From Candidatus Latescibacterota bacterium (GTDB lineage Bacteria > Latescibacterota > UBA2968 > UBA8231), in assembly GCA_965243025.1 (NCBI GenBank), contig CBDETY010000003.1:800001-864000 (forward strand): a DNA stretch of 64,000 nucleotides. The letters are read 5' to 3'. The notes beneath the pieces were generated by a model. It ran no database searches and was not told where the DNA came from. It saw only the letters and a program-made list of their open reading frames with translations. Positions 35,050-61,805 of the stretch are shown in pieces. The position numbers and the translations under genes are program-made. The first letter of the stretch is position 1; the number at the start of each line of letters is the position of its first letter.

Positions 35050-37389
35050 ATGAAAAACCAACTTTTCAATCGGACACTCATCGTGCCGATCCTGGCGGTG
35101 ATGCTGGTGTTATGCATCCTGCCTGGAACCAGCCACGGTGGAGGCGTCGGCGATGTAATCGGAGGAATCGTCGAGGTCACCGTCGGCCTCGTGGAAGTGA
35201 CCGTCGGGATCGTCGAGATCGCCGTCGGGGTAATCGACCTTACCGTCAGCCTCCTTGCCACCCTCGCCTTGCATACGGCTGCCGTCACCGCCGCAATCAT
35301 CAGCCCGGACGGCGCGACGCTGATCAGCGCAAGCCTCGACCTCACAATTGCACTGTGGGATCTCACGACCGGGTTACTCACGGCGACTCTGGAGCATCTG
35401 TCTCCGGTCCTGAGCCTAGCCCTCTGCCCCATCGATGCCTGCCTTCTCGCAAGCGGAACCGAGGACGGCAAGCTCCACCTGTGGGACCCCGACACCGGGC
35501 AACTCACCGCCACCCTTACCGGGCACACGGCTGCGATACTGAGCACGGCCTTCAGTCTCCTTGACCACTGCCTGCTGGCAAGCAGCAGTGCGGACGGGAC
35601 CATCCGTGTCTGGGATGCGGAAGCGGGTACACACCATCGGACCCTCACCGGACATGGCGACAGCGTCCTGAGCGTTGCCTTCAACTCCACTGGCGACAAG
35701 CTGGCCAGCGGGGGCGCGGACGGCACCATCCGTCTCTGGAACCCAGGGACAGGCGCTCACCAACAGACACTCACCGGGCACACCGAAGCCGTCAGGAGCC
35801 TTGCCTTCAGTTTCAGCGACAGCTTGCTGGCCAGTGGCAGTGGGGACGGAACGGTGCGGGTGTGGAATGCCCTCACCGGGGAGCACCTCGCCACTCTCGA
35901 TCACAAGTCTCCTGTCCTGAGCGTGGCCTTCGGTCCCGGAGACAGTCTGTTCGCCACCGGCAGTGAGGATGGCAACGCGCGCTTGTGGGACCCCGCGGGC
36001 GAACTATTGGCAACACTCGGGCACGAGTCTCCCGTCCGGAGCGTGTCCTTCAGTCCGGATGGCGGCACGCTGATCAGCGGGGCGGAGGACGGCAAGGTCC
36101 GGCAGTGGCAGGTAACGTCCGTCGCCAGTTGTTGTCCCCGGAATCCGGCGAACGACTTCAATACGATGAAAGCTGCCGGGAACGAATCGCCGCGAGGCAT
36201 CTGGTCGGACGGAACCACCATGTGGGTTGTGGACGACTGGGACGACAAGCTGTACGCCTACGACATGGCCTTCAGAAACCGGGATTCCGCCAAGGACTTC
36301 ACTACCCTGGATGCGGCTGGAAACAAAAAACCATCCGGCATCTGGTCGGACGGAACCACCATGTGGGTCGCCGACTATTTCGGAAGAAAGCTGTACGCCT
36401 ACGACATGGCATCCAAAGCCCGGGATTCCTCCAAGGATTTCAATACCCTGGATGCAGCCGGGAACACCAGGCCTCAGGGCATCTGGTCTGACGGAACCAC
36501 CATGTGGGTGGCGGACGACTGGGACGAGAAACTGTACGCTTACGACAGGGCATCCAAGGCCCGGGATTCCGCACAGGACTTCGACACTGGCGGGAATAAC
36601 TACCCTACGGGCCTCTGGTCGGACGGAACGACCCTGTGGGTGGCCAACTATGCCGGCTCCAAGCTGCATGCCTACGACCTGACCGCCAAGGCCCAGGAAC
36701 CGGCCAGGGACTTCCTTACCCTGCGCTCCGCGGGAAACACCCTCCCTGTCGGCATCTGGTCTGACGGAACCACCATGTGGGTAACGGACGATTCCGACAG
36801 AAAGCTTTACGCCTACGACATGCCAACCGATGGTGATACACCGGCCGGGGACACACCCCAAAATCCCGGTACGGGTACAACGACACCGCCTCCGCAAACC
36901 TCAACGGCCACCGATTTCAACGGGGACGGAAAGACCGATTTCGTCGACTTCTTCCAGTTCATCGACGCCTTCGGCAGCACGGATTCCCGCTTCGACCTCG
37001 ACGGCAGCGGCACGGTCGATTTCGTCGACTTCTTCCAGTTCGTCGATGCCTTCGGCCAGGAGGAGCGCGCCAAGATGGTGGCAATAGCCCAGGAAACGAT
37101 CGGCTTGCCAGCGGAAACTCAGCTCCACCAGAATGCGCCCAACCCGTTCAACAGTGATACGGTCATTTCCTGGTTCCTGCTGGAGCCGGGGCCGGCGCAA
37201 TTGGAGGTGTTGTCCCTGACCGGACAAAGGGTGGCCGCCCTGCATCAGGGCCCGCAACAGGCGGGACGCCACCGGATCCATTGGGACGGTAGGGACAATG
37301 GGGGCCGTCCCCTGGCCAGCGGGGTTTACCTGTACCGCCTGGTTACGAACGAAAGTGTCCTGACGCGGAAACTCACCCTGCTGCGATGA
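35050..37389 (+). CDS. Secreted WD40 protein with GIWSDGTTMWV repeats, EF-hand/dockerin-like pair and C-terminal FlgD-Ig
   Basis: TLTGH...LASGS.DGT.R.W repeats; five GxWSDGTTxWV repeats (about 141-bp period); TDFNGDGKTDFVDF; QNAPNPFN...TRKLTLLR. Confidence 0.88.
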   Translation: MKNQLFNRTLIVPILAVMLVLCILPGTSHGGGVGDVIGGIVEVTVGLVEVTVGIVEIAVGVIDLTVSLLATLALHTAAVTAAIISPDGATLISASLDLTIALWDLTTGLLTATLEHLSPVLSLALCPIDACLLASGTEDGKLHLWDPDTGQLTATLTGHTAAILSTAFSLLDHCLLASSSADGTIRVWDAEAGTHHRTLTGHGDSVLSVAFNSTGDKLASGGADGTIRLWNPGTGAHQQTLTGHTEAVRSLAFSFSDSLLASGSGDGTVRVWNALTGEHLATLDHKSPVLSVAFGPGDSLFATGSEDGNARLWDPAGELLATLGHESPVRSVSFSPDGGTLISGAEDGKVRQWQVTSVASCCPRNPANDFNTMKAAGNESPRGIWSDGTTMWVVDDWDDKLYAYDMAFRNRDSAKDFTTLDAAGNKKPSGIWSDGTTMWVADYFGRKLYAYDMASKARDSSKDFNTLDAAGNTRPQGIWSDGTTMWVADDWDEKLYAYDRASKARDSAQDFDTGGNNYPTGLWSDGTTLWVANYAGSKLHAYDLTAKAQEPARDFLTLRSAGNTLPVGIWSDGTTMWVTDDSDRKLYAYDMPTDGDTPAGDTPQNPGTGTTTPPPQTSTATDFNGDGKTDFVDFFQFIDAFGSTDSRFDLDGSGTVDFVDFFQFVDAFGQEERAKMVAIAQETIGLPAETQLHQNAPNPFNSDTVISWFLLEPGPAQLEVLSLTGQRVAALHQGPQQAGRHRIHWDGRDNGGRPLASGVYLYRLVTNESVLTRKLTLLR

Positions 37390-37580: not shown

Positions 37581-38267
37581 ATGCAGTGTTTTTTTCTGGT
37601 CTTCTGCCTGACCGCGCTTGCAATGCACTCCCCGCTCTTCGCCCAGAAGATTGAAGATGTCATTCACTTGAAGAATGGAGAAACTGTTCGCGGCACCATC
37701 ATCGAGCAGATTCCGGGCGAATCGCTGAAGATACAAACCGCAGACGGCAGCGTCTTCGTCTATACGATATACGAAATCGCGGAAATAAGCAGGGAACCGG
37801 TGATGAAAATGGGAGAAGGATTCATCAAGGCCAAAAGGAAAAATCCCTGGCTTGCTTCGGGCCTGTCGTTGCTGATTCCGGGTACGGGACAATTTTATAA
37901 CGACCAACACAAAAAGGGGTTGCCACAACTCGGTGCTGCACTTGCAGGGGCAGGGCTTATGTGGTGGGCTGTGAAAGATAATTATGAAAGTTGGGAGAGT
38001 TATGAGGAAAACCCGTCCTGGAACCCGCTTGATTGGATCGATGAGGATGGAGACGACAAGCTATTCTACTTCGGGACTCCCCTCTGGTTAGGCAGCCTGG
38101 TCTGGTCGGTGATTGATGCAAACCGCTCGGCCAACCGAATCAACCAGGAAGGTGAACAACCTGATTTCGGCCATCTGCTGGAGTTGGGTACAGACCAGGT
38201 CACGCTTGGAGTGGATCCCGTCTTCGGGCGCTACGGACCAGGTGCGAAACTTGTGCTTCATTTTTGA
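37581..38267 (+). CDS. Hypothetical membrane protein (TM2/DUF5683-like)
   Basis: AGGAG RBS; signal peptide; DVIHLKNGETVRGTIIE; KNPWLASGLSLLIPGTGQFYN; terminal Phe. Confidence 0.65.
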   Translation: MQCFFLVFCLTALAMHSPLFAQKIEDVIHLKNGETVRGTIIEQIPGESLKIQTADGSVFVYTIYEIAEISREPVMKMGEGFIKAKRKNPWLASGLSLLIPGTGQFYNDQHKKGLPQLGAALAGAGLMWWAVKDNYESWESYEENPSWNPLDWIDEDGDDKLFYFGTPLWLGSLVWSVIDANRSANRINQEGEQPDFGHLLELGTDQVTLGVDPVFGRYGPGAKLVLHF

Positions 38268-38409
38268 TCTCCACGCAATTGCCAGCTCTCCATCCTGACC
38301 GTGAGAGTGCAGGAAACTCTCTATATCTCTTTTCAAGAGCAACCGGATCGGGAATGACTGACCATCAATTAAAAACCCGTTTATCCAGTTACCCGCAAGG
38401 AGACAGGCT

Positions 38410-40245
38410 ATGAACAACTATGCCCTGATTTTGTTGTTGGCCCTGGGCCTGGCCGCATGCAGGGGACCTCAGGGCCCTCCGGGCACTGATGGCCAGATCG
38501 GCCCGATGGGACCTTCAGGCGAACAGGGTTCCCAAGGGGAAAAAGGGGATAAAGGCGATGAAGGGCCTCAGGGAGAAACTGGGGAACAGGGACCTCAAGG
38601 ACCCCAGGGGGAAACAGGACAGCAAGGGCCTCAAGGGGAAACTGGGGAACAGGGACCTCAAGGATCCCGGGGGGAAACAGGACAGCAAGGGCCTCAAGGG
38701 GAAACTGGGGAACAGGGACCTCAAGGACCCCAAGGGGAAACAGGACAGCAAGGGCCTCAAGGGGAAACCGGGGAACAGGGACCTCAAGGACCCCAGGGGG
38801 AAACAGGCCAACAGGGACCCCAAGGTGACCCAGGACCTGAGGGACCCCAAGGCCCGGAAGGACCTCCAGGCCAACAGGGACCCCAAGGTGACCCAGGACC
38901 TGAGGGACCCCAGGGACCGGAAGGATCGCCAGGCGAGCAAGGACCTGAGGGCCCCCCGGGACCGGAAGGACCCCAAGGACCAGAGGGACCTGAAGGACCC
39001 GGCGGTGGCGAAGAAGGGCCCCCAGGACCTCAAGGACCTCCAGGAGAACAGGGACCTCCAGGAGAACAGGGACCGGAAGGACCGGAGGGACCTCAAGGAC
39101 CTCCAGGGGAGCAAGGACCTCCAGGGGAGCAGGGGCCGCAGGGACCGGAAGGACCCGAAGGGCCTGAAGGACCTCCAGGCGACCAAGGTCCGGAAGGACC
39201 GGAGGGACCTCAAGGACCTCCAGGATCTGGAGAATCCGGAGGCGGACAAGGGGGACAGGAACCTCCCGTCTTCGAGGCCACGGGTGATAGTGCCGCCCTG
39301 GTCGCTCTTTACTATGCCGCGGGCGGGGAATCCTGGACGGATAATTCCCAGTGGCTGAGCTCGGCTCCTATCGCAGAATGGTACGGCGTCACCACCAACC
39401 CCAGCGGCCGCCAGATCCTTCGGCTGGACCTGTCAGACAATGCGTTGTGGGGGCCAATTCCCCCCGAACTTGCTGACCTCGCCTACCTGGAATACCTGGA
39501 CCTCTCCGGTAACGGGTTGAGGGAGGACATTCCACCGGAACTGGCAAACCTCGAAAACCTGGAAGTTCTGAATCTTTCAAACAACGATTTCCATGGGGAA
39601 GTTCCACCGGAACTGGCAAACCTCGAGAGCCTGGAAACCCTCAACCTGTTCGGCAACGAATTGGAGGGGGAAATTCCACTGGAACTGGGGAACCTCCGCA
39701 ACCTGAGAACCCTTTCCCTGGGTTCTAACAAGTTGGAGGGGGAAATTCCACCGGAACTGGCAGACCTCGAAAACCTGGAAGTCCTTAACCTGGCAAATAA
39801 CCGGTTGGAGGGAATTCTGCCGGACTTTCTGGCGGACTTCTCCAACCTGGATAACCTGCTCCTAAGTGGAAACACCCAACTGAATGGGTGCTTACCGGAA
39901 GGGGCGCCGGTGCCGTTCTGCACACTGCCAGGCAACCTGAATGCAAGGCGCGAAAACGGCGATACAGTCCTCACCTGGGATCCTGTGGAAGGAGCCACCC
40001 ACTACAATCTTTACTGGAACCCTGAACCTTTCGGTACAGATTGCACAGTGACCTCCGGTGGTTCCACAGGGACATCGTTCAGGGGTTGTTCAGCATTAGC
40101 TACCGAAATTACTGAGACAACCTACATCCACGACCGCTCCGATTTGGAATACGAATACTGGGTTACTGCCTGTACCAGCGATGGGTGCGGGACCATCACA
40201 TGGGTGGAGGACGAAAGCGAGCAGGATCCTCCAGCTAAAATTTAG
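38410..40245 (+). CDS. Lipoprotein with long collagen triple-helix stalk, plant-RLK-type LRR domain and FN3-like C-terminus
   Basis: Lipobox LAAC; long GXY tract with 63-bp DNA tandem repeats (38572-38820); DSAALVALY...WYGV and LxGEIPPELxNLxNLExLNLxxN repeats. Confidence 0.9.
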
Positions 40246-40411
40246 GATTACTTGGACCAGGAATACTCTTCTTTTTCAGTTGTCAGACCAAGCTTGGACC
40301 GAATGAGTACGACTCTTCCCTGTCGGACCGATTGCGACATGTAAAGAATAGTCCTTCACCCAAAAGGGGGCATCGGAAAACCAGCCCTCCTCATCTGAAA
40401 GGAAGAATGCA

Positions 40412-41380
40412 ATGAAATATTTTGCGTTTTCCTTGTTGCTTGCTTTTGCCTTCTCTGCATGCACCGGCCCTCGGGGGGAACAGGGCCCGATGGGACCTCA
40501 AGGGCCCCAAGGAGAAAAGGGGGAACAAGGCCCGCAAGGACCTGAGGGACCTCAAGGCGAAGGTGAACAAGGCCCGCAAGGACCTGGGGGACCTCAAGGA
40601 GAACAGGGACCCCAGGGAGAACAGGGACCTCAAGGAGAACGAGGTTCGATGTACAGGATGCTGTACTGGGCGGACTCCGACGCGGGCAAGATTCAGCGAG
40701 CCAATCTCGATGGTTCCGAAGTTCAAACCATCGTCTCCGGATTGGAGGATCCGGAGGGCATTGCTCTCGACGCGGTCGGCTGGAAGATATACTGGACTGA
40801 ATGGGGGAGCGTTAAGCGGGCAAACCTCGATGGCTCCCAGATCGAAAGCCTCGGCACCGTATGGGGAAGTGACATCGCTTTGGACGTGGCTGGAGGAACG
40901 TCTTACCTGGCGAACTGGAAAGAGACGATCTACCGCACGGGCCTGGGCGGTTCCCCAGTCGAAACCCTCGTCACCGAAGCGGGTGCGTCCGAGGCAATCG
41001 CCCTGGATCTGAGAAGGGGCAAGATGTACTGGGGTGGATGGCGCGGAGAGGAGATCAGCCGGTCCGACCTCGACGGTTCCCAGGTCGAAATCATCGTCAC
41101 CGGCGTGGATCGGGTACACGACCTGGAGGTCGACGAGAGTTGGGGCAAGCTGTACTGGGCATCGAATGCGGGGGTCCAGCGGGCAAACCTCGACGGGTCC
41201 CAGGTCGAAACCCTCTTCTCCGAAAACAGCATGGGCATTGCCCTCGACCTCGGCGGGGGCAAGATATACTGGACTGAATGGATCGAGGAGAGGATTCGGC
41301 GGGCAAATCTCGACGGGTCCCAGGTCCAGACCATCGTCACCGGGTTGGAGTGGCCGCGCGATATCGCCCTGGCCCCCTGA
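40412..41380 (+). CDS. Lipoprotein with short collagen stalk and YWTD/LDL-receptor beta-propeller
   Basis: Lipobox FSAC; GXY repeats; KIYWTE...RANLDGSQV repeats. Confidence 0.88.
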
Positions 41381-41469: not shown

Positions 41470-43044
41470 ATGAGAAAGCAACTCCTTTTCTCAGTCTTTA
41501 TTTCGGGAGCGGCCTGGAACTTTTTCCCAAGGTTTCTCGAGGCCCAAATAGACGTCGGTGTGGTTTCTGAAAGCATCGTCCGTGTTCGTGCGTACCAGAT
41601 AGACGGGGTTGAAGTCGAGGGAGCCGGGTTTGTCGTCAACGAAATGGGGCACGTCCTTACGAATGCCCATCTCATTGAGAAAGCGGATAGAGTAACGGTA
41701 TTGTCCCTGAAAACGGACGCCGAGGCAATTCCCGAGCAGGTGTTCGCCGACCGCGAAATCAACCTCGCCCTTTTGCAAACACAGAATTTGAACCTCCCCC
41801 CCCTCAGGCTGTCCGAAAGGGCAGCCGGTGCAGGCCGAATCGTCCAGACGCTGCGCTTCGGCGTCATGGGGGATGTCTCGCTTTCCCAGGGAACCATAAG
41901 CACCTGGGAAACCATTTTCGAAAAGAAGGCAGGACGGGTCGTTGGGCGCCTGCTGCAACACAATGCCTTGATATCCGCAAAAGCCTTCGGCATGCCGTTG
42001 TTCAACGAATGCGGAGACGTGGTGGCAATCAACATGCCGAATCCCCGCGGCGGACCGTGGCCGTTTCGAACAGCGAAACCGAAAGGGGCCGTTTTTGCCT
42101 TGAGCAGCAACGACTTGGTAGCTGCTCTCGACGGCCGGAAAATCCCGCATCAGGCGGTAAATACTGAATGCCTGGGTGCACTCGAGCGGGCCGAACGCGA
42201 CAAACTGGCCACCGAGGACAGCCTGAAACTGGCAAGGGCGGAAGCCGACTCGGCGATAAAGGCCGCATCAGAAGCCGGGGAGAAGGAGAAGGCGGCCCGG
42301 CAAGAGGCTGAAAGGGTTAAAGCCCGGGCGGAGGCTGCGAGAAAGGCGGCTGCCCGGAGCATTCAGGCTGCCAGAGCCCAGGCGGAGAGTCTGAAGACAG
42401 CGACAGTGCGGGCGGTCACGGCGGTAAAAGCTGCGCCCGATGGCCCGCAGGCTTCCAAGGTTCAAACGGATAGCCTGGAGACAGGGAAAGCGTTCCCCGA
42501 TTCGACGACTGACGAGACCGCCGACAGCAGCGAACAACCTGCCCGGGAGATCCCGCTGAGCTTGAAGTGGGGGATTCCAATCGGGGGAGCCGTTGTGTTG
42601 CTCATCCTGCTCGGCTGGTTGCTTGCCGCCCACCGGAGAAAGGAACAGCTGCGCAGCGCCGAGTCCCGTTTGAGCGCAGCGCACCAGGCTGCGGCGGCCG
42701 CACCGAAGCCGGCGCCTTTCAGATGCCTGCTGGAAGGCCGGGACAGCTCCGGCCGGGAATTCGCATTGACCATATCGGCCCTGGCGCTGGGTGATCCGGC
42801 CGGTGTAACGCTTGGGAGGAGTCCGGCGAATGCCGATTTCGTCGTCGATCACGATGAAGTCTCCCGCGAACACGTCCGCCTCAGGTGCACTGGCCCCACC
42901 CTCTACGCGGAGGATTTGAACGCCCTGAACGGGACCAGGGTAAATGGCCGTTTGCTGAATCAGGAGGAAAGGGTGCCCCTGCAAAACGGGGATCGGCTCG
43001 AGACAGGCCCGATTGTTTTCTCCGTGCTCCTGGTCCAGGAGTGA
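41470..43044 (+). CDS. Membrane protein: trypsin-like (probably inactive) domain, Ala-rich helical stalk, TM helix, C-terminal FHA
   Basis: GAGFVV...VLTNAHLI; INLALL and SAKAFGMPLFN replace DLALL and GNSGGPL; TM GAVVLLILLGWLLAA; FHA LGRS...VSREH...NGTRVNG. Confidence 0.8.
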   Translation: MRKQLLFSVFISGAAWNFFPRFLEAQIDVGVVSESIVRVRAYQIDGVEVEGAGFVVNEMGHVLTNAHLIEKADRVTVLSLKTDAEAIPEQVFADREINLALLQTQNLNLPPLRLSERAAGAGRIVQTLRFGVMGDVSLSQGTISTWETIFEKKAGRVVGRLLQHNALISAKAFGMPLFNECGDVVAINMPNPRGGPWPFRTAKPKGAVFALSSNDLVAALDGRKIPHQAVNTECLGALERAERDKLATEDSLKLARAEADSAIKAASEAGEKEKAARQEAERVKARAEAARKAAARSIQAARAQAESLKTATVRAVTAVKAAPDGPQASKVQTDSLETGKAFPDSTTDETADSSEQPAREIPLSLKWGIPIGGAVVLLILLGWLLAAHRRKEQLRSAESRLSAAHQAAAAAPKPAPFRCLLEGRDSSGREFALTISALALGDPAGVTLGRSPANADFVVDHDEVSREHVRLRCTGPTLYAEDLNALNGTRVNGRLLNQEERVPLQNGDRLETGPIVFSVLLVQE

Positions 43045-43050
43045 GTTGAA

Positions 43051-44001
43051 ATGAAAAGACGCAGACCCGAACTGACGATTTTCAGTATGTCCGCGCTCGA
43101 TCTGCTCGCATCGGCCCTCGGTGCTTTCATCCTGATAACCGTAGTGCTTATCCCCCTGTTCCCGAACCTGGAAATCCTGGGTCAGGTGAGGGGCGAGTTG
43201 GCCCAGAAAAAAACCGAGTTGGAACAGACCAGGGAAGATCTCGACCTGGCAATGGCCGAATTGGACCGGAAGAAATCCGAATTCCAGTTGGACAAGGAGA
43301 AATCGGAGCGGGAAAGGACTCAACTGGAGCAGAAGAACGTCGAGCTGAAACGGGAAAAGGCCGGACTCGAGCAGAAAAAGGCATTGGCCCGGCAGACCAG
43401 AACCGAACTTGTAGAACAGATCCAGGCGTTACAACAAAAGATTGACGACACCAGTGTCCTGCTCGGCATAAGGACAATCGCCAGGAAATTCGTTTTCGTC
43501 ATCGATATGTCGGGCAGCATTTACCACCCCGGGGAGCACGACTACCGCCAGTTCATAAGGCTGTCCATACAAGACATGCTCGCTTCCTTCAAATCCGAAA
43601 TAGAAGTCTGCCTGATCGGTTTTCAGACTCCTGAACGGGGAACAACCTTGCATTTCTGGCCCGAGAACAAGGAATACTTCCAGGTCGGGAAGGATGCACA
43701 TGATCAACTGATTGAAAAGGTAAACGACTGGATGGGAATGGTAGACGGCGTCACCCCTACCCGGGCGGCGTTGCTGGAGGCCATTGCCCTGCAACCTGAG
43801 GAAATCATCCTTCTGAGCGACGGGGCTCCCTCGGAGGACTGGCGCACGGTGGTGCGAGCCGTAACCGCCGAAAACAGGCAGAGAATACCCATACACGCAG
43901 TAGCCGTGGGAAATTACACCGCGGACCGGAAGTTCATTGATTTCCTCGTGAATCTGACAAAGCAGAACAACGGGTACGTGGTGGGAGCAAAACCGGGCTG
44001 A
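43051..44001 (+). CDS. vWA-domain membrane protein with N-terminal Asp-containing TM helix and coiled coil
   Basis: MKRRR...FSMSALDLLASALGAFILITVV; E/K/Q-rich coil; MIDAS residues FVIDMSGS, TPT and LSDG. Confidence 0.82.
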   Translation: MKRRRPELTIFSMSALDLLASALGAFILITVVLIPLFPNLEILGQVRGELAQKKTELEQTREDLDLAMAELDRKKSEFQLDKEKSERERTQLEQKNVELKREKAGLEQKKALARQTRTELVEQIQALQQKIDDTSVLLGIRTIARKFVFVIDMSGSIYHPGEHDYRQFIRLSIQDMLASFKSEIEVCLIGFQTPERGTTLHFWPENKEYFQVGKDAHDQLIEKVNDWMGMVDGVTPTRAALLEAIALQPEEIILLSDGAPSEDWRTVVRAVTAENRQRIPIHAVAVGNYTADRKFIDFLVNLTKQNNGYVVGAKPG

Positions 44002-44027
44002 CATGTACGGCTGAGAGGAGAAGGAGA

Positions 44028-44828
44028 ATGGCGGAATCCAACATGGTAAAACCCAGAAGCATCAACAGGGACCAACGACTGATCGCCAGCGTCGTCAGTC
44101 TGGCCGGGGGCATTTTTTACATAGCTGTCCTGAGCTTTGTTTTCGATCATCCCGATTCCATCGCGGGCGACTTCCTGCTGGATCGCAACTCCAGAAACTT
44201 CACCTACCCGTTCACCATCCAGAACCTCATGTGGCTGTTGTTCTGGTTCGGGTGCGGCGAACTGTTTGTGCGGTTCAACCAGGCCAAGCTCGAAATGGAG
44301 CAGATTTCCAAAGGTTATCTGCCGGAAGGTGACGAGGTAATGCTTCAGGCCCACGAATTGGGGCCCTTGCACCAGAAATCCATGCCCGTCGCCAGGGAAC
44401 GGACCTTTTTCCTGCCGCGTCTGATCGTGCGCTGCATCCTGCAATTCCAGGGAAGCCGCTCCGTCAACCAGGCCAACTCCCTGCTCAATTCCTCCCTCGA
44501 GTTGTTCCAGCACGAGCTCGACCTCAAATACTCGATGCTGCGCTACCTCGTCTGGCTCATTCCGACGATGGGTTTTGTGGGCACTGTTCTCGGCATCGCC
44601 TTGTCCCTGGACTACGCGGCGAAAATCGTGGACCCCCATGACCCGGACTTGCTGCGCCAGATCACCGGGCGGCTCGGGGTCGCCTTCTACACCACCCTGC
44701 TTGCCCTGGTCCAGTCCATTCTTCTGGTGTTTGCGCTCCACATTGCCCAAAACCGGGAGGAAATGGCCCTGAACCTGTCCGGGCAGTACTGCCTGGACAA
44801 CCTGATCAACCGCCTCTACGAAAAGTAA
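44028..44828 (+). CDS. MotA/TolQ/ExbB proton channel family protein
   Basis: IPTMGFVGTVLGI and GVAFYTTLLAL helices with the conserved P/G/T pattern. Confidence 0.88.
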   Translation: MAESNMVKPRSINRDQRLIASVVSLAGGIFYIAVLSFVFDHPDSIAGDFLLDRNSRNFTYPFTIQNLMWLLFWFGCGELFVRFNQAKLEMEQISKGYLPEGDEVMLQAHELGPLHQKSMPVARERTFFLPRLIVRCILQFQGSRSVNQANSLLNSSLELFQHELDLKYSMLRYLVWLIPTMGFVGTVLGIALSLDYAAKIVDPHDPDLLRQITGRLGVAFYTTLLALVQSILLVFALHIAQNREEMALNLSGQYCLDNLINRLYEK

Positions 44829-44881
44829 ATCTCCTTCGAGAAACTCCGCGTCTCAGGGAACCCCAAGGAAGGAAGGGAACC

Positions 44882-45535
44882 ATGCCGGTTTTTCGCCGCC
44901 CCGATGGAAACATAACCGAGAAAAAAACCGGGAAATCAGAGAAGGATTCCCCGCCGCCCGACCAGGCCAACAGGCCGCTGCCGCCGGCATCTCAGGAAGG
45001 GGGTCAAGCCGCTCCCCCCGGTCGTTTCGATGCTGCCACCAAGCGGATGGAGACAGACCCTTCACCACCCCGCCCTGGAGATGACGAGAAAACACGGCTG
45101 GTCGGTGGACGGGCGCCGCGGTCAGACAAAGGGGTCGTCCAGGAAAGCGCCGCGGAAAGCCGCGGGATGGACGATCCGGTCGTTGGATGGCTGGTGATCG
45201 TCGAGGGGCCGGGAAAGGGCCGGGCGGTGCAACTGGGGTATGGATCCAATTCCCTCGGGCGCGGCGCAACCGACCGCGTCAAGCTCGATTTCGGCGACGA
45301 CCAGATTTCCCGGAATGGCCATGCGGTGGTCACCTACGACCCCCGCGGCCGGAAGTTCTACGTGCAGCACGGGGGCGGCACCAACCTGACGTATCTCGGC
45401 GATCAGCCGGTCTTGACTCCGGCAGAGTTGCCGCCAATGGGCCGGATCGGAATCGGGAATACCGTTCTCCGGTTCGTGCCCTTCTGCGGTACGGAGTTCG
45501 ACTGGCAGGACTCGGAAGAAAGCGAAGACGCTTGA
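44882..45535 (+). CDS. FHA-domain protein with disordered Thr-containing N-terminus
   Basis: VVGWLVIVEGPGKG, LGRG, ISRNGHA and TNLTY; N-terminal ATKRM and KTRLV possible phospho-sites. Confidence 0.85.
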   Translation: MPVFRRPDGNITEKKTGKSEKDSPPPDQANRPLPPASQEGGQAAPPGRFDAATKRMETDPSPPRPGDDEKTRLVGGRAPRSDKGVVQESAAESRGMDDPVVGWLVIVEGPGKGRAVQLGYGSNSLGRGATDRVKLDFGDDQISRNGHAVVTYDPRGRKFYVQHGGGTNLTYLGDQPVLTPAELPPMGRIGIGNTVLRFVPFCGTEFDWQDSEESEDA

Positions 45536-46410
45536 GCGAAAGCGGTCGCTGTGCCGCGGGGCAAATCCGCGGCAAACGGAGCTGCCAGGAAGACGACTAC
45601 GGCTTCGTCGATGCACGCGCCCTCGGAACAGACCGTAACGAACACTCCCTGTTACTGGTGGCCGACGGCATGGGCGGCCACGCCGGCGGCGCCACTGCCA
45701 GCGGTCTTCTGAGAAAGACCTTTGTCGAGGCCTACCCGCGGGCTTCCGGGCCGATCGTCCATCGCCTTCAAGGTTGTCTCCAATCGGCCAATGCAGCCAT
45801 GGCGGACGCCGTTGACCAGAATCCCGAGCTGGCCGGCATGGGTTCCACCCTGGTCGCGGCCGTCGTCTCCGCCGGGGGCCTGAACTGGATCAGCGTCGGG
45901 GATTCCCCGTTGTGGTTGTTCCGCAAGGGCGCGCTGGAGCGGTTGAACGCAGACCACTCCATGGCACCGGTCCTCGCCGACCTCGTTTCCACCGGGCGGA
46001 TGACCGAAGAGGACGCCGCCCGGGATCCCGCCCGGCATTCGCTCAGGTCCGCGGTCACGGGCGAGGACATACATCTGGTTGACATATCGCCGCAACCGGT
46101 TCCCGTGGAGAATGGCGACCGGCTGCTGTTGGCCAGCGACGGGCTGATGACTCTCGGAGATCGGGAGATCGCCGGTATCCTCGAGGAAACGCAGGACGCG
46201 TCATTGGAGGACAGCACCGCAGCCCTTATCCAGGCAGTGGAAGCCGCGGGAAATCCCCGGCAGGACAATACCACTCTTCTGTTGTACGCCCCCGCCGGAG
46301 GCACCCAACCCCCCGGGGCCGATGTGGCCGGGTCGGAAGCCGACCGGGGCATTCCCCGCCTGAAACGCTGGGCGAGACTGTTTGGCAGATCCGCAGGACG
46401 GAAACAGTAG
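45532..46410 (+). CDS. PP2C-family Ser/Thr protein phosphatase
   Basis: TTG start overlapping the upstream TGA; RSCQEDD, VADGMGGH, MGSTL, VGDS, DHS, LASDGL and QDNTT motifs. Confidence 0.92.
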   Translation: MSESGRCAAGQIRGKRSCQEDDYGFVDARALGTDRNEHSLLLVADGMGGHAGGATASGLLRKTFVEAYPRASGPIVHRLQGCLQSANAAMADAVDQNPELAGMGSTLVAAVVSAGGLNWISVGDSPLWLFRKGALERLNADHSMAPVLADLVSTGRMTEEDAARDPARHSLRSAVTGEDIHLVDISPQPVPVENGDRLLLASDGLMTLGDREIAGILEETQDASLEDSTAALIQAVEAAGNPRQDNTTLLLYAPAGGTQPPGADVAGSEADRGIPRLKRWARLFGRSAGRKQ

Positions 46411-46483
46411 GGGGTCAGCCGGGAGGCCGGGGAAGCAGAAAAGGTGCCTTGGCGGCCCTGCGATACACGCACGGTCCGGTCTG

Positions 46484-48376
46484 ATGGGTGAGGAACAACA
46501 GCATCGCCTGGCGCTGCCGAAGGGGACTCGCATTCGCGACTTCGAGTTTCACCGGGTCCTCGGCCACGGCGGATTCGGGATCACCTACCTGGGATGGAAC
46601 ATCACCCTGGATATTCCCGTTGCGATCAAGGAGTACTTCCCTTCTGATCTCGCTACCCGCGAGAGGAACCTTTCCGTCGTGCCCCAAACGACTCAGGCCG
46701 CCCCTGATTTCAAATGGGGCCTCGAGCGCTTCCTGGACGAAGCCCGCACTCTCGCCCGCTTCCAACACCCCGGCATCGTCCGCATCCATCACTTCTTTGA
46801 GGCCCACCGCACCGCCTATATCACGATGGAATACGTGGAGGGGGAAAGTCTGTCCGCATATCTGAAGCGCAAGGGAACGCTGAGCGAAAACGAGCTGAAA
46901 GGGATTCTGAACCCGTTGCTGGGCGCTTTGGAAGTGGTGCATCGAGCAGACTTTCTGCACCGGGACATCAAACCCGCCAACATCGTCCTCAGGGAAAAGG
47001 ATGGCTCGCCGGTTTTGCTGGACTTCGGGGCCGCGAGGCAGGCAATGGGCGCCAGGAGCCGCTCGGTCACGTCGATAGTTACCCCGGGGTATGCGCCGAT
47101 AGAACAGTATTCGACCCGGGCTGCCCAGGGAGAGTGGACGGATATCTACGCCCTGGGGGGGGTCTGTTATCGGGCGTTGACCGGAGAGAGCCCCTTCGAT
47201 GCAACCGACCGGATGCGGAACGACCCGCTTGTTCCGGTGGCTCAGCGCTGCGCTGGCAAAGCAAGTCAAGGATTTCTCGCGGCGATAGATGCCGCCCTGG
47301 GGGTGGATGCTCACGATCGTCCCCAGAGCATTGCGGAGTGGCGAGAGGTGCTGCGCGGTGCGGGACAGGAGGCGGCGCCATCGAAGCACGGGAAGCGCTT
47401 CCCATACAAGCGTCTTGCGGCCGTCCTGGGGCTGGTTGCTCTCCTGATCGGTGGCCAGAGGTATGTGGAGCACGTCGAACAGGTGGCTGCGGCCCGGGAA
47501 AGACAGGAACAGGCGGCGCTGGAAAAACAGCGCCAGGAAGTGGCCGTGCTGGAGAAGCGGCAACGCGTAGAAGCGGACCTGGAGAAACAGCGTAAGGAAC
47601 GGTCGAAACTGGAGCAGCGGCGTCTGGACCAAGCGGAGCTACGGAAACGAGCCCGGCAAAAAACCGCGTTGGAGAAGCAGCAGCGCGAAGAAGCGGCAGT
47701 GGAGAAAGAGCGTCGGGAACAAGCCGAGCTACAGCAACGGGCCCGGGAACAGGCAGGGTTGGAAAAGCAGCAGCGGGAACAGGCGGCGCCGGACGTACAG
47801 CGCAAGGAAGAAGCGGCGTTGGAGAGACAGCGCCAGGAGCAAGTATTCGTCCAGGAGGTGGGACGCCCTCCGAGTCCGGGAGGAATAAGCAAGGGCGATA
47901 CCGATCTGCATATCGCCGCGCGGCTGAACCTGCCTCTGCTGGCTGTATCCCTCTTCGAGCAGGGTGCCGATGTCCACGCCAGGAACGAGGACGGCTGGAC
48001 ACCGCTGCACGTTGCCGCGAAGGAGGCCGCTTCCGGGGCCGCGGAAGTCCTGATCGAGCAGGGCCCCGATGTCAACGCGAGGGAAACACTGTTTGGCTGG
48101 ACGCCGCTGCACCTGGCCGCGGCGGAAGATGCTATTGCGACTGCCGAGGTCTTGCTCAAACAGAATGCCGATCTCCACGCCAAGGACAAATTCGGCTGGA
48201 CGCCGCTGCATTCAGCGGCGGCCAACAATGCCCATGAGACCGCCGAGGTCTTGTTGAAGGCCGGGGCTGACGTGAACGCAGAGGACAACCATGGCTGGGC
48301 ACCGCTCTACTGGGCCTCACGCAAAGAGGCGGTCCAGGCGGTGGACGTCCTGCGTCGTTACGGTGGTAGAAAGTGA
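46484..48376 (+). CDS. Hanks-type Ser/Thr protein kinase with TM helix, 10-aa-repeat helical stalk and C-terminal ankyrin repeats
   Basis: LGHGGFGITY, VAIKE, HRDIKPAN, DFG, YAPIEQ and DIYALG; TM LAAVLGLVALLIGG; about 5 GWTPLH-type ankyrin repeats. Confidence 0.93.
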   Translation: MGEEQQHRLALPKGTRIRDFEFHRVLGHGGFGITYLGWNITLDIPVAIKEYFPSDLATRERNLSVVPQTTQAAPDFKWGLERFLDEARTLARFQHPGIVRIHHFFEAHRTAYITMEYVEGESLSAYLKRKGTLSENELKGILNPLLGALEVVHRADFLHRDIKPANIVLREKDGSPVLLDFGAARQAMGARSRSVTSIVTPGYAPIEQYSTRAAQGEWTDIYALGGVCYRALTGESPFDATDRMRNDPLVPVAQRCAGKASQGFLAAIDAALGVDAHDRPQSIAEWREVLRGAGQEAAPSKHGKRFPYKRLAAVLGLVALLIGGQRYVEHVEQVAAARERQEQAALEKQRQEVAVLEKRQRVEADLEKQRKERSKLEQRRLDQAELRKRARQKTALEKQQREEAAVEKERREQAELQQRAREQAGLEKQQREQAAPDVQRKEEAALERQRQEQVFVQEVGRPPSPGGISKGDTDLHIAARLNLPLLAVSLFEQGADVHARNEDGWTPLHVAAKEAASGAAEVLIEQGPDVNARETLFGWTPLHLAAAEDAIATAEVLLKQNADLHAKDKFGWTPLHSAAANNAHETAEVLLKAGADVNAEDNHGWAPLYWASRKEAVQAVDVLRRYGGRK

Positions 48377-48439: not shown

Positions 48440-50773
48440 ATGAACCTCCCCGTTCTTCACTCTGTCTCGTTCGCGTTGCTCGCTCTCTTGCTCTCGCCGC
48501 CCGTCAGCCATGCTTCTCCCCCGCTAGCCGGTAGTGTGCCTTTCTGCCAGCCTCTGGATCTCGAGCAGCTGGACCGAGACCATGCCCGCGCACCTGCCGA
48601 TCTGCCGCTAGTGTTCAACGTTTCCGACATAGGGGAGGTCGAAGAGAGCATTGTTCAGGAGCCTGATCCACCCGAACAACCCAAAGAGGTCGGCGAACCA
48701 CGCACCGTGCGGCTCTTTTACTTCCTACCCAATGACCGGACGTATCGCGCCGAGGTGGTTGAGGCGATGAAAACGGGGATTGTCGAGGTTCAGTCCTTCT
48801 ATGCTGAGCAGATGGAGGCGCATGGATACGGGAACAAAACTTTTCCGATTGAAACCGATGACCAAGGCGACCCGATCGTTCATCGCGTAGATGGAGACTA
48901 TCCCGAAAGCAATTACATCAGAATAAATTATTTTACGCAGGGTGAGATTAACCGAGCGTACGATAACTCTGCAAACGTCATACTAATAGTCATGGACGCG
49001 AGTAACTCTTCTACTATTCAGGGACACGCCATATACAGGGGTAAAGAGAGAGGAGAGGTGACACTTTATGAAGAGTGGGATTGGTCTACTGCGGTCCATG
49101 AACTTGGACACGGCTTCGGCCTACAACACGATTTCAGGTCTAATGCGTACATCATGTCGTATGGATGGTCAGATCGGGAAACTGTCCAATTATCTGCGTG
49201 CGCTGCCGAGTTTTTAGCCGTGAATCCCTACTTCGATTCGGATATCCCACTTGAAAACGAATCACCGCCCACGGTTGAACTAATTTCATCAGAAACGTAT
49301 CCATTCGGATCAGTAAGCGTGCCGGTCCAACTGAGAGTCCGCGATGATGATGGACTTCATCAGGTAATTTTCCTCTCTCAACCCCGAGATCCCTTGCACC
49401 CCCCCACCCCCGCAGTAAGAGAGTGTCGTGGATTGGCCGGTGAAACAGATACCGTCGTTGAATTCAATTTTGCTTGGAGATTTGACGCCGCAGTTAGTCA
49501 GCGTTCCGTTTATGTCGTGGCAGTCGATGCGAATGGGAATAGTAAGGAAGTGCCTTTTATCCTTGAGTCAGAACCTCCACCAGAACTTCCTCCAGGCACA
49601 GTGATCACTCCGGTCTGCGATCGTACGCGGCAGGTACGAGATGCCATCGTCGATAACATTAGTGGCATCTCGGACTGCGCGCAGGTGGCCGAGACTCACC
49701 TCGTGGCGATTTCAGGACTTAACTTGCCCGGCAGGAACATCACAGCACTGAAAGCCGGTGATTTTGATGGACTGATCTCGCTGAGATCAATCTCCCTGTT
49801 CAACAACCAGTTGAGTTCCTTGCCTGTCGGCCTCTTAGACGGACTGACCGCACTGGAATACCTCTCCCTGTTCAATAATCAGTTGACGGGGCTACCCGAG
49901 GGCCTGTTTGACGGGCTGACTGGGCTAACTACGCTCTACTTGCAGGGTAACACCGTGGATCCGCTGCCGCTTACGGTGTCCTTAGAGAAAGTTGGCACAG
50001 ATCAGTTCAAGGCCGTGGCACCCATCGGTGCACCGTTTGAGATGGTGCTGCCACTCACCGTTACGAACGGCAGTATTAGCGGTGGTGCAACCACCATTGC
50101 GATACCCGTCGGCAACCTGGAAAGCCAACCACTCACCGTGACCCCCACCCCCAGTACGACGGCTGCGGTCACCGTGGACATTGGCACCTTGCCGGGGCTG
50201 CCCTCAAACCATCAAGGCTACGCCCTCGTCAAATCCGCCAACCTGCCGGTGGAGATTTTCAGCAGTGGCGGGCCCGGCACTACAGTGGCACGGACCGACT
50301 TCAACGGCGACGGCAAGACCGATTTCGTCGACTTCTTCCAGTTCGTCGACGCCTTCGGCAGCACGGATGCCCGGTTTGACCTCAACGGCGACGGCAGGGT
50401 CGACTTCGTCGACTTCTTCGCGTTCGTCGATGCCTTCGGCTCGTCGGGGCAGGCCAAGCTGGTGGCCTTGGCCCGGGAGATGCTCGGTCTGCCGGGCGGA
50501 CCGGAGCTACAGCAGAACGCCCCCAACCCGTTCAACACCGAGACGGTTATCTCCTGGTTCCTGCTGGAGCCGGGTCTGGCACGACTGGAGGTGTTCGCCC
50601 TTACCGGGCAACGGCTGGCGGTGCTGCATCAGGGGCCGCTGCAGGCCGGGTACCATCGGCTCCACTGGGACGGCCGCGACGATGCTGGCCGGCCCCTTGC
50701 CAGCGGCGTCTACCTGTACCGGCTGACAACTTTCGAGGGCGACCTGACGCGCAAGCTCACCCTGCTGCGTTAG
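48440..50773 (+). CDS. Secreted zincin metallopeptidase + LRR + EF-hand/dockerin-like + FlgD-Ig protein
   Basis: VHELGHGFGLQH...IMSY Met-turn; LRRs; TDFNGDGKTDFVDF; QNAPNPFN...TRKLTLLR. Confidence 0.88.
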   Translation: MNLPVLHSVSFALLALLLSPPVSHASPPLAGSVPFCQPLDLEQLDRDHARAPADLPLVFNVSDIGEVEESIVQEPDPPEQPKEVGEPRTVRLFYFLPNDRTYRAEVVEAMKTGIVEVQSFYAEQMEAHGYGNKTFPIETDDQGDPIVHRVDGDYPESNYIRINYFTQGEINRAYDNSANVILIVMDASNSSTIQGHAIYRGKERGEVTLYEEWDWSTAVHELGHGFGLQHDFRSNAYIMSYGWSDRETVQLSACAAEFLAVNPYFDSDIPLENESPPTVELISSETYPFGSVSVPVQLRVRDDDGLHQVIFLSQPRDPLHPPTPAVRECRGLAGETDTVVEFNFAWRFDAAVSQRSVYVVAVDANGNSKEVPFILESEPPPELPPGTVITPVCDRTRQVRDAIVDNISGISDCAQVAETHLVAISGLNLPGRNITALKAGDFDGLISLRSISLFNNQLSSLPVGLLDGLTALEYLSLFNNQLTGLPEGLFDGLTGLTTLYLQGNTVDPLPLTVSLEKVGTDQFKAVAPIGAPFEMVLPLTVTNGSISGGATTIAIPVGNLESQPLTVTPTPSTTAAVTVDIGTLPGLPSNHQGYALVKSANLPVEIFSSGGPGTTVARTDFNGDGKTDFVDFFQFVDAFGSTDARFDLNGDGRVDFVDFFAFVDAFGSSGQAKLVALAREMLGLPGGPELQQNAPNPFNTETVISWFLLEPGLARLEVFALTGQRLAVLHQGPLQAGYHRLHWDGRDDAGRPLASGVYLYRLTTFEGDLTRKLTLLR

Positions 50774-52369: not shown

Positions 52370-53503
52370 CTGCCAGAATGGCACCCTGGATCGAAAAGGC
52401 CACCGCTCTGATCGAGGTGGAAACCGGGGCTCCTGCTCTGATCTCGATGAGGTGAGCAGGAATTCATTCCGTTTTGTCGGCAAGTTGGCAAGCAGGATAG
52501 CCCACTGGTGAAGGCGTCTTTTCTGCGCAAGACGGCAGGCACCGAACAGCGGGATGTCGCCTTGTTGACCATTCGAGAAGATTCGCCGCTTCCATCCAGA
52601 TGGGGATGATCCAGTTCAGCCGGCGATGGGACCGGAGGCAACGAGCAGCAGCATATTATCCTCAAAGTCAGGCAGTCTGCATCCGGCGATGTATCCAGAC
52701 TCGCAGGTACCTCCCCCCTGAAGTCGGCACCGTGAATCGAAAGGCCACCGCTCTGATCGAGGAGGAAATCGGGGCTCCTGCTCTGATCTCGATGAGGTGA
52801 GCAGGAAATCATTCCGTTTTGTCGACAAGTTGGCAAGCAGGATGACTGAGGATTCCTCGGGTGCAGGCTGAGCTGTCAGGCGCAACAGGGGAGGCAGCCG
52901 GCAGGGATGTCGCCTTCCTGACCATTCGAGAAGATTTCGCCGCTTCCATCCACAGACTCCGTTCGGCCGACAATGCGAAGAAAGACAGGGGACCAGCGGA
53001 ATGGATGGGGATCTCAAGGCCCTTTGATTGTCCCAAATTGGGACATTTAACTCCGTGGGCGGTGGATCCGAATCTGAATGTCGGCGACTCGCCGTAGGTA
53101 TTATCCCAGACTCCTCGGTACCTCTCCCCGGAAGTCGGCACTCTGGATCGAAAAGGCCACCGGGCTCTGATCGAGGAGGGGGATGCGCGGACTCCCTGAA
53201 TCTGCAAAGCCGTCGTCGTCGAGGTGAGCAGGAGATCATTCCGTTTGGTCGACAAGATGGAAGCAGGATGACTAAGGATTCCTCGGGTGCAGGCTGAGCT
53301 TTTCGCGCAAGAGGGGAGGCAGCCGACAGGTATGTCGTCTTGCTGACCATTCGAGAAGGATTTTCCCTCCATCCACAGACCACAGTTGAGAATCGATTCC
53401 GTTCCGCCGGCGATGCGGGTATTCTCCGCAGGAGACTTGACGGCAGGCAACGACCAGCGGGAATGTCGCCTTGCTGACTACTCGAAAAGACTCGCCCTTT
53501 CCT
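52370..53503. repeat. Array of about 3.5 degenerate non-coding repeats (periods 346 and 411 bp) downstream of the IS1595 transposase
   Basis: atcgaaa(a)ggccaccg at 52390, 52736 and 53147; variants of ggatgtcgccttgctgaccattcgagaag at 52551, 52904, 53329 and 53459. Confidence 0.85.
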
Positions 53504-60573: not shown

Positions 60574-60581
60574 TTGAAGAG

Positions 60582-61583: not shown

Positions 61584-61805
61584 GGGGAGTATTCCAGCTT
61601 CGTGTGGAGTGAGCTAAGTTCCACCGGACACCTTGGCTGATTCCGTCGGAGGAGAGATGTGAGTAGCGGCCTCTTCCAGCTTGTGGAACCGCAGACTCGG
61701 CTGAGCAGGATTCAATTGAAGGCAAAGGGCCTTTACAGCCTTCTGCTCGTTTATCGGTGTGTTTGAGGAGACTATCGGTGAAAGTGTCGGGGATGCGGGT
61801 ATTCA

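Follow-up and report, generated by a model that had tools for sequence, protein, structure and literature searches.

The stretch of DNA analysed here (the window) comprises 64,000 nucleotides (nt), positions 800,001 to 864,000 of the forward strand of contig CBDETY010000003.1, in the 6.8 Mb genome of Candidatus Latescibacterota bacterium (assembly GCA_965243025.1). At 41470-48376 it contains six open reading frames (ORFs), here named G1 to G6, all on the forward strand (Table 1), which encode a trypsin-like protein with a cytoplasmic FHA domain, a membrane-tethered vWA protein, a TolQ-like membrane protein, a second FHA protein, a PP2C phosphatase and a Hanks-type Ser/Thr kinase. The genes are tightly packed, with gaps of 6, 26 (from the G2 stop to the G3 start) and 53 nt and two overlaps. 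A preliminary description of the locus had listed six co-oriented genes with these domains; all six were found where it had placed them, and every domain was confirmed by Pfam. Its transmembrane (TM) helices were recovered by hydropathy (G2 residues 18-36; for G1 and G6 see Table 1), and the domain of G1 that it had called a pseudo-trypsin indeed lacks the His-Asp-Ser triad of HtrA/DegP, the corresponding positions in an alignment with MucD/HtrA1 being H67/N98/F173. Its identification of a PP2C gene was correct, but the start of this gene is most likely the TTG codon at 45532, which overlaps the G4 stop, rather than the first ATG of the ORF at 45187. As it had also stated, no Tol/Ton, flagellar, type VI secretion system (T6SS) or Zorya effector family was found among the flanking and other large ORFs of the window that were scanned. 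Scans for sigma-70 promoters and terminators gave fewer sites than were found in shuffled sequences, and were of no help in setting the limits of an operon.

Table 1. Features of the six-gene cluster, its upstream neighbours and the tract shared with its paralogous copy (aa, amino acids; AF2, AlphaFold2; window coordinates).
Feature	Position	Strand	Description	Basis
G1	41470..43044	+	Signal peptide, periplasmic HtrA-like pseudo-protease, coiled coil, TM helix 369-387, cytoplasmic C-terminal FHA domain 446-511	Pfam, MucD/HtrA1 alignment, hydropathy
G2	43051..44001	+	Putative B-type (MotB/ExbD/TolR-like) subunit: basic N-terminus, transpore helix, stalk, vWA head	Pfam, alignments, AF2, Foldseek
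G3	44028..44828	+	Putative A-type subunit, 266 aa, divergent member of the MotA/TolQ/ExbB family, four hydrophobic helices	Pfam PF01618, alignments, AF2, Foldseek
G4	44882..45535	+	Cytoplasmic FHA protein, disordered N-terminal half, conserved C-terminal tail	Pfam FHA, alignments
G5	45532..46410	+	PP2C phosphatase, 292 aa from the most likely start, TTG 45532	Pfam, NCBIfam, start-codon inspection
G6	46382..48376	+	Hanks-type Ser/Thr kinase, TM helix 345-359, stalk, C-terminal ankyrin repeats	Pfam, motifs, hydropathy
Upstream neighbours E, F, G	37581..41380	+	Lineage-specific secreted/lipoprotein genes	Pfam, sequences, lipoboxes, synteny
Identical tract	42655..46143		3,489 nt identical to the paralogous locus at C3:2.42 Mb; spans the G1 FHA domain, G2, G3, G4 and most of G5	Pairwise alignment

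G3 matches the MotA_ExbB family (PF01618; E 7.6e-10, 39.1 bits with a cut-off of 22.9 in the Pfam scan, 40.5 bits in the genome search), of which the genome has four canonical genes elsewhere. An AF2 model of G3 (predicted local distance difference test, pLDDT, 86.6) was compared with known structures by Foldseek, which ranked TolQ first (9avi_A and 8vlw_A), then ExbB, then PomA/MotA, with a probability of 1.00, TM-scores of 0.49/0.57 and E-values from 5e-3 to 8e-2. Residues T186 and T222/T223, which lie in the final two helices, do not vary across an alignment of 62 homologues and fall opposite the GT and TT of PomA in a profile alignment; they may be channel-lining positions. Much of the cytoplasmic loop is invariant in the same alignment, and the C-terminal sequence GQYCLDNLINRLYEK is kept in at least 90% of the homologues. 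No other protein of the set is as conserved as G3, which shows more than 50% identity across phyla. A word-indexed search found 1963 proteins related to G3 at E <= 0.001, and of 1.84 billion cluster representatives (50% identity), 197 matched it at E <= 1e-30.

G2 begins with a basic stretch and a helix, SALDLLASALGAF, that contains no His, and hence no SHLS/His motif. Asp17 of this transpore helix (TPH) is present in all 81 related TPH ORFs of other genomes and is invariant in an alignment of 29 sequences (A4). In an AF2 model of G2 (pLDDT 81.5), helix 14-36 has low confidence as a monomer, the stalk is one uninterrupted 92-residue helix (residues 42-133) and the vWA domain (residues 135-312; Pfam VWA_3, E 1.7e-08) is confidently folded. 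The head has the residues of a metal-ion-dependent adhesion site (MIDAS), D152xS154xS156 and D257, of which D152 and D257 are invariant in A4, and its nearest folds by Foldseek are extracellular vWA domains of the MIDAS type (ITIH1, CLCA1, integrin I-domains, CMG2/TEM8). Pfam scans found no ExbD, TolR or MotB family in the six cluster genes or their flanks. We read G2 and G3 as the B and A subunits of a TolQ-like/TPH-vWA motor, which by analogy would assemble in the 5:2 ratio of known stators. The ion-motor pair of the preliminary description is thereby supported, given the PF01618 match and TolQ-like fold of G3 and the invariant Asp in the helix of G2.

The other four genes encode the elements of a threonine phosphorylation circuit. 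G6 matches Pkinase (E 5.9e-38, 131.2 bits) and ankyrin repeat families, and has the kinase motifs VAIK80, HRD193, DFG214 and APIE238; beyond the TM helix lie a stalk of about 140 residues rich in E/Q/R/K/A and ankyrin repeats at approximately 505-660, and an alternative start is the ATG at 46484. G5 matches PP2C_2/SpoIIE/PP2C in Pfam and a Stp1-type NCBIfam model (134.5 bits, below the cut-off of 230), and contains DGMGG, GDS, SDG and DNTT, which we take to be the usual metal-binding motifs of PP2C. With these motifs intact, both kinase and phosphatase are predicted to be active. G4 matches FHA (E 4.6e-06), and the disordered half ahead of this domain contains three conserved Thr motifs, T16, T53 (DAxTxxM) and T71 (EKTRLV), the last kept in at least 90% of 40 aligned rows; a conserved tail, RFVPxCGxxFDWQD, follows the domain. 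A Thr motif ahead of an FHA domain is the layout of GarA/OdhI and FhaB-type switches. The best NCBIfam matches of G4 (44.5 bits) and of the G1 FHA domain (38.5 bits) are to FhaB/FipA (FhaB_Rv0019c; cut-off 125), with OdhI also below its cut-off, and the NCBIfam scan of the cluster as a whole returned no match above any family cut-off. G4 looks like a phospho-switch and, judged by its motifs, is the best candidate for a target of the kinase. A complex prediction for G3 with full-length G4 (score 0.00, mark 0.32) counts neither for nor against binding.

G1 combines a Trypsin_2 match (E 1.5e-15) with an FHA match (E 8.1e-16), and its FHA domain starts about 60 residues after the TM helix. The degenerate HNF form of the triad is shared by eight orthologues, and an intact HDS triad was found in 19 of 42 related trypsin-TM-FHA ORFs from the 80 loci described below, the rest being degenerate. 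Three close relatives (L006, L007 and L010) carry one intact and one degenerate trypsin-FHA protein.

In the whole genome, the Pkinase model has two matches over the cut-off, both in the two copies of the cluster (see below), and one just under the cut-off elsewhere; the FHA matches listed are also two, the G1 FHA domain of each copy. Searches by phmmer with the domains of the window found kinase, PP2C and both types of FHA only in the two cluster copies. The writer, the eraser and the readers have no other detectable partners in the genome, which argues that the phospho-circuit is closed and that the targets of the kinase lie within the cluster. Chance adjacency of the six genes was set aside, since both over-cut-off Pkinase matches in 6.8 Mb sit approximately 2 kb from a G3 copy and the set recurs in other phyla.

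The conservation of the set was examined in the best 80 of 474 confirmed places of G3 relatives in species-representative genomes, by phmmer searches of all their ORFs with the domains of the window. Partners within 8 kb of the G3 homologue were counted in the 46 loci whose flanks extend 6 kb or more on both sides, the other 34 being cut by contig ends; the counts for PP2C and trypsin are lower bounds because they rest on single-sequence searches. A TPH protein was found in 43 of the 46 loci, an FHA protein in 39, a Hanks kinase in 37, a PP2C in at least 26 and a trypsin-TM-FHA protein in at least 21, with all five together in 19. Two or more TPH genes are present in 13 of the 46 loci and one in 30, and of ten TPH proteins sampled from those without a phmmer link to the G2 head, seven have a vWA domain according to Pfam. 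The loci are labelled Latescibacterota, Gemmatimonadota, Acidobacteriota, Rhodothermota, Alphaproteobacteria and Gammaproteobacteria, and the carriers include the cultured Alteromonas lipotrueae, Corallincola platygyrae, Nioella ostreopsis, Pseudomonas sp. WN033 and Halioxenophilus sp. Thus, the six-gene set is a real, conserved system, known from its genes alone. The preliminary description had proposed a motor pair coupled to a kinase, a PP2C and FHA proteins, and had made its claim depend on the co-occurrence of these genes in other genomes; they do co-occur, and the genetic linkage extends across phyla.

The periplasmic part of the kinase varies among loci. The ectodomains identified in ten other loci are FGE-sulfatase (4), Sel1 (3), PEGA (2) and beta-helix (2), one kinase having both PEGA and beta-helix; together with the ankyrin repeats of G6, this is the pattern that would be expected of a variable sensor on a conserved core. 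In 57 of the 80 loci, the G3 homologue is immediately preceded by a small FHA gene (about 130 aa), and the Thr of its C-terminal motif LPxGPVRRNxxTGEII, with Ile at +3, is possibly a phospho-acceptor. One apparent MotA-FHA fusion (P0021), with an N-terminal FHA domain, a low-complexity stretch and a MotA-like part, looks like a gene call that merged such a small upstream FHA gene, and was given no weight.

In a quick maximum-likelihood tree of the G3 homologues (midpoint root, SH-aLRT support), a well-supported clade of 20 rows with the gene order G3-FHA-PP2C mixes Latescibacterota and Gammaproteobacteria labels, and a Gemmatimonadota group without the phospho-signalling genes is nested among loci that have them. 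Part of the mixing of phyla may be due to the labels of the bins. Among the closest relatives of the window, L003 is labelled Latescibacterota, L004 Gemmatimonadaceae and L005 Acidimicrobiaceae, yet their G3 proteins are 87-92% identical and their domains match those of the window by phmmer at E 1e-23 to 1e-177, which reflects either inconsistent labels or bins or a very recent transfer. Among 40 other genomes related to that of the window, a G3 homologue was found in seven: both genomes of the same genus, one of two in a neighbouring genus, and four of 12 in a genus of a second family of the same class.

The cluster is present twice in the genome of the window. Positions 24401-52184 are duplicated at C3:2404175-2431470, a segment of about 28 kb with 75-94% nucleotide identity that covers both an array of genes for secreted proteins and the six-gene cluster, and the genomes of the same genus carry one copy of G3 only. 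Within the duplication, the identical tract of Table 1 has a synonymous divergence (dS) of 0; beyond it, dS is lowest over the remainder of G1 (0.07-0.21), reaches 0.36 over the kinase domain and is highest, at 0.66-0.93, over the stalk and ankyrin region of the kinase. The ratio of nonsynonymous to synonymous divergence (dN/dS) between the two copies is 0.12-0.47 in all segments, indicating purifying selection; positive selection on the sensor domains of the paralogs was considered and gave no sign at that resolution. We read the tract as the product of gene conversion that keeps the core of the motor uniform while the periplasmic sensor parts drift apart. An assembly artefact was rejected as its cause: among short-read contigs from four runs of one study, possibly of the source samples, each run has one contig that matches the tract exactly and ends precisely at its borders, and two variants continue beyond. 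The depth of this tract contig, approximately twice that of the flanking contigs, is suggestive only.

Directly upstream of G1 lie genes E, F and G. E encodes a 228-aa protein with a signal peptide. F (38410-40245; lipobox LAAC) and G (40412-41380; lipobox FSAC) encode lipoproteins that begin, in mature form, with collagen-like GXY repeats, about 255 residues followed by leucine-rich repeats (LRR) in F and about 60 residues followed by a YWTD/LDL-receptor-B propeller in G. Of the nine collagen-like ORFs that the genome contains, five lie beside one or other copy of the cluster. Apart from the paralogous copy, only the closest relatives (L003-L005 and L011) share the order E-F-G-G1, and collagen-like neighbours occur in six of the 80 loci; in the Gemmatimonadota clade, a protein with peptidoglycan-binding and LRR domains is encoded directly upstream of the G3 homologue. 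The suggestion of the preliminary description that the cluster controls the array of secreted proteins around it therefore holds as a possibility for the lineage of the window, where synteny with E, F and G is kept, but such a link would be lineage-specific at most and not a conserved feature of the system.

Several other features of the window were noted. A C-terminal module of about 480 nt is shared by genes at 34555-35035, 36907-37389 and 50294-50773 and by many other places in the genome (76-88% nucleotide identity), and forms the end of several WD40, LRR and metalloprotease proteins. The module matches FlgD_ig in one protein, small repeat ORFs at 17987-18739 match FlgD_ig and, weakly, Por_Secre_tail, and the resemblance suggests a sorting domain of the type 9 secretion kind on the proteins of the array. 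Two copies of a gene encoding about 250 aa (17963-18742 and 22957-23739; CarboxypepD_reg and FlgD_ig, with weak Por_Secre_tail in the first) are 5 kb apart and 91% identical, and two large ORFs without a Pfam match lie between them. The protein encoded at 25365-31385 (2006 aa) has eight CARDB and 11 LDL-receptor-B repeats, with internal nucleotide repeats of about 350 and 700 nt, and has paralogs at several other places in the chromosome. On the reverse strand, 8947-11307 encodes a hybrid histidine kinase fused to an OmpR-type output (785 aa; GAF, PAS, HisKA, HATPase_c, receiver and Trans_reg_C domains), 53478-54482 encodes a transposase of the IS1595 family (DDE_Tnp_IS1595 and Zn ribbon) within an element of approximately 53.1-55.0 kb that has more than ten other chromosomal copies of 74-88% identity, and 58066-63926 encodes a trio of a HerA-like DUF87 helicase/ATPase (61806-63926), an AAA ATPase (60582-61583) and an S8 subtilase (58066-60573), which may be of the defence type.

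Domain content, fold, conserved residues, gene linkage and the exclusivity of kinase and FHA proteins to the cluster in this genome were observed directly, and the reading that we favour, to which we give an even chance, is that the cluster encodes a TolQ-like/TPH-vWA ion-driven motor that is gated by its own kinase/PP2C/FHA switch and acts on whatever ligand the vWA domain binds in the periplasm or outer membrane. By analogy with the 5:2 assemblies of MotAB, ExbBD and TolQR, a ring of G3 would surround two transpore helices of G2, each with a proton-binding Asp17, and the stalks of G2 would extend approximately 14 nm into the periplasm and end in metal-dependent vWA binding heads. G6, as a membrane kinase with a variable periplasmic sensor, would phosphorylate Thr motifs, the likeliest being those in the disordered half of G4 and in the activation loop of G6 itself; the phospho-marks would be read by two FHA domains, that of G4 and that of the membrane-anchored G1, and erased by G5. 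The state of phosphorylation would then control assembly or engagement of the motor, and with it the conversion of proton flow into force on a partner that the vWA heads hold, whether periplasmic or at the outer membrane. That the subunits assemble 5:2, which targets are phosphorylated, which way control runs and that the output is mechanical are inferred.

Several results weigh against this reading. A profile of 15 G3 sequences, searched against solved structures, reached the stator proteins PomA and TolQ only at E 0.28 and E 0.82, and a fold search was needed to place G3 at all. No cytoplasmic Thr of G3 is invariant in the 62 sequences; the motor subunit itself is therefore probably not the ligand of the FHA domains. 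A kinase, FHA protein or PP2C was not detected beside the G3 gene in seven of the 46 loci, six of them in an 11-locus Gemmatimonadota clade, although a TPH protein lies within 8 kb in all of the seven but L058, and the motor can therefore exist without the switch. The window copy is moreover a reduced variant: it has a single TPH-vWA gene, the small upstream FHA gene is absent from the window and from the whole genome, and the genome has the dead HNF form of the protease only, with no catalytically intact partner. Finally, the patchy distribution of G3 among related genomes is as expected of an accessory system, and is compatible with a motor function and with a defence function alike.

The alternative that survives best, though we consider it unlikely, reverses the direction of the signal. 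In a sensor-first arrangement resembling Zorya, G3 and G2 would form an envelope sentinel of a conflict or threat-sensing system, in which the vWA head, the dead protease and the ankyrin repeats detect an invader or envelope damage (a phage, an epibiont or a host factor), and a changed ion flow or rotation is passed to the FHA, kinase and PP2C proteins as output. The patchy distribution within genera is consistent with such a system, as is the gene tree, whose mixing of phylum labels fits horizontal spread. The variable kinase ectodomains include FGE-sulfatase, which the Aravind group has tied to sensing in conflict systems (the accessible text of PMC7159879), and a threat pathway leading from a surface sensor through a kinase and phosphatase to an FHA protein, Esr, has been shown experimentally in Actinobacteria, according to the available portions of PMC13622651. 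PADLOC, apart from generic kinase matches (PD-T4-6, MAD6), gave only weak matches of the cluster to ZorA2 (E 2.6e-05, 21.4 bits over 84 residues) and, for the N-terminus of G2 only, to ZorB (15.2 bits, E 0.0025-0.0029). However, the cluster contains no effector or transcription-factor domain, and the genome has no other listed FHA match or over-cut-off kinase that could relay a signal. At 266 aa, G3 is without a long cytoplasmic tail of the ZorA type, no gene resembling ZorC, ZorD or ZorE was found in the cluster or its flanks, the ectodomains of the two paralogs have dN/dS values under 1, and the flanks are unlike a defence island. The conflict role entertained in the preliminary description thus found no direct support, PADLOC having returned weak or generic matches and the cluster having no effector domain.

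It is distinctly improbable, in our estimation, that the unit is a form of the widespread vWA/kinase/FHA/PP2C signalling module in which G3 is a mere scaffold or ion channel that anchors G2 and has no rotary or force-producing role. Such modules do exist: a vWA-kinase-FHA-PP2C operon of Deinococcus radiodurans has no MotA-like gene in the accessible version of its description (bioRxiv 10.64898/2026.01.23.701218), and neighbourhoods of a kinase, a PP2C and a stand-alone vWA protein are described for Actinobacteria in the available text of PMC7159879. A mere scaffold is difficult to reconcile with the rank of G3 as the most conserved protein of the set, with the invariance of residues that form the ion path of stators (Asp17 of G2; T186 and T222/T223 of G3), or with the persistence of G3, nearly always with its TPH partner, in the seven loci where no switch was detected.

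A more specific form of the motor reading, which we regard as a long shot, is that the vWA heads of G2 grip the collagen-like lipoproteins F and G through their MIDAS, as integrin I-domains and von Willebrand factor A grip animal collagen, and that the cluster is a proton-driven, kinase-gated winch which tensions, moves or releases a surface layer of collagen, LRR and propeller proteins in what is probably a sponge symbiont. The synteny of E, F and G with G1, the flanking of the cluster copies by more than half of the collagen-like ORFs, the MIDAS-type fold of the G2 head and the peptidoglycan-binding LRR protein upstream in the Gemmatimonadota clade make the data compatible with this proposal, and the scarcity of collagen-like neighbours among the 80 loci counts against it. 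If correct, it would describe a bacterial equivalent of the mechanics of integrin and collagen, equipped with a phosphorylation-dependent on/off switch of its own.

That the six genes are chance neighbours or an assembly artefact without joint function has next to no probability: a tract of 100% identity between two copies could at first sight suggest an error of assembly or polishing, but the linkage is kept in dozens of loci from several phyla, the genes are closely spaced or overlapping, including the start-stop overlap of G4 and G5, and the short-read contigs of the four runs reproduce the window without differences, breaking at the ends of the identical tract.

Motors of the ion-driven 5:2 kind drive flagella, Ton/Tol transport, gliding, type 9 secretion and Zorya defence, and we know of none among these that comes with a Hanks kinase, a PP2C and FHA readers of its own. 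If a phosphorylation-gated motor is the correct reading, the family would exemplify the gating of a proton motor by threonine phosphorylation in a bacterium, and would contribute a motor in which the part that rotates or pulls carries an integrin-like binding head at its end. Because the circuit is closed, the only over-cut-off kinase and the only listed FHA matches of the genome being in the cluster copies, the targets of the kinase should be few and easy to find, and the cultured carriers make the system open to study. The significance would be less if the cluster were an accessory signalling cassette with no mechanical output.

Compared with the systems named in the preliminary description, the cluster is part of no T6SS, Zorya or Tol/Ton system, the defining partners of which were not found among the ORFs scanned. 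Unlike Tol-Pal and Ton, it has no TolR/ExbD, TolA/TonB, TolB/Pal or TonB-dependent receptor in the cluster or flanks, and unlike the flagellar stators MotAB and PomAB, its G2 ends in a vWA domain rather than an OmpA-like domain, with no flagellar genes among the window ORFs scanned. It resembles ZorAB of Zorya in being a MotAB-like pair outside motility, and in the weak PADLOC matches given above. ZorA has a long cytoplasmic tail, which G3 lacks; the head of G2 is a vWA domain and not a peptidoglycan-binding domain, and no match to ZorC, ZorD or ZorE was found in the cluster or flanks. In mycobacteria, the kinase PknB, the PP2C phosphatase PstP and the two FHA proteins FhaA and FhaB (FipA) are encoded together and act on envelope processes. 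The cluster likewise combines a kinase, a PP2C and two FHA proteins, whose best NCBIfam matches are to FhaB/FipA, but these scores are far below the cut-off, there are no PASTA domains, and the partner machinery is different. The H1-T6SS of Pseudomonas aeruginosa is controlled by threonine phosphorylation through the kinase PpkA, the PP2C phosphatase PppA and Fha1. There, as proposed here, one envelope machine is switched by a dedicated set, made up of a membrane-bound Hanks kinase that has a periplasmic domain, a PP2C and an FHA protein; the machine controlled here would be a stator-like motor instead, and no T6SS family was found among the window ORFs scanned. The signalling half of the cluster also resembles the Esr threat-sensing pathway, as far as the latter is set out in the accessible text of PMC13622651, although it belongs neither to that pathway nor to the T6SS or mycobacterial sets.

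The Agl-Glt gliding and focal-adhesion system of Myxococcus xanthus (AglR5-AglQ/S, GltG and CglB) offers a further parallel, as described in the available text of PMC11761067. It joins a motor of the TolQR type to a single-pass protein with an FHA domain near the TM helix, and it includes a vWA ligand-binding protein. The FHA domain next to the GltG TM helix is predicted to lie on the cytoplasmic face of the TolQ-like AglR pentamer, and on this analogy it is plausible that the FHA domain of G1 docks on a G3 pentamer in a GltG-like manner. In Agl-Glt, however, the vWA domain belongs to an outer-membrane adhesin, CglB, rather than to the B subunit of the motor, and GltG has N-terminal FHA domains and a TonB-like C-terminus, the reverse of the arrangement in G1, which has a dead protease instead. 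No Glt proteins were seen at the cluster of the window, and the accessible text describes no dedicated kinase or PP2C for Agl-Glt.

The closest description is that of the TPH-vWA/TolQ-like family, in which genome comparisons and AlphaFold3 predicted in 2025 a TolQ-like pentamer without TolR or ExbD, paired with TPH-vWA proteins that bear a proton-binding Asp (PMC12204202, accessible text). The likeness lies in the defining features of the family and was drawn from these rather than from its Idiomarina reference sequence: a gene for a TM-tethered vWA protein stands beside a TolQ-like gene with no tolR, exbD or motB, the transpore helix of G2 is ExbD/TolR-like, with a conserved Asp and without the SHLS/His motif of TolA/TonB, and the A subunit has conserved Thr residues. 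The published family has predominantly heterologous pairs of TPH-vWA proteins and the window copy has one, which the word predominantly does not exclude from membership. The available text of the paper does not contain the word kinase and has FHA only as FhaC, so that the kinase, PP2C and FHA proteins, with the protease-FHA partner, are additional here. A full-text literature search, which extended to neither subscription journals nor supplements, found no paper linking a MotA/ExbB/TolQ-vWA motor to a kinase, FHA protein or PP2C. Thus, the preliminary description of the locus as an undescribed system is to be divided: the core of the motor had already been predicted in silico (PMC12204202, accessible text), and only the phospho-signalling link to the TolQ-like/TPH-vWA motor was absent from the papers searched.

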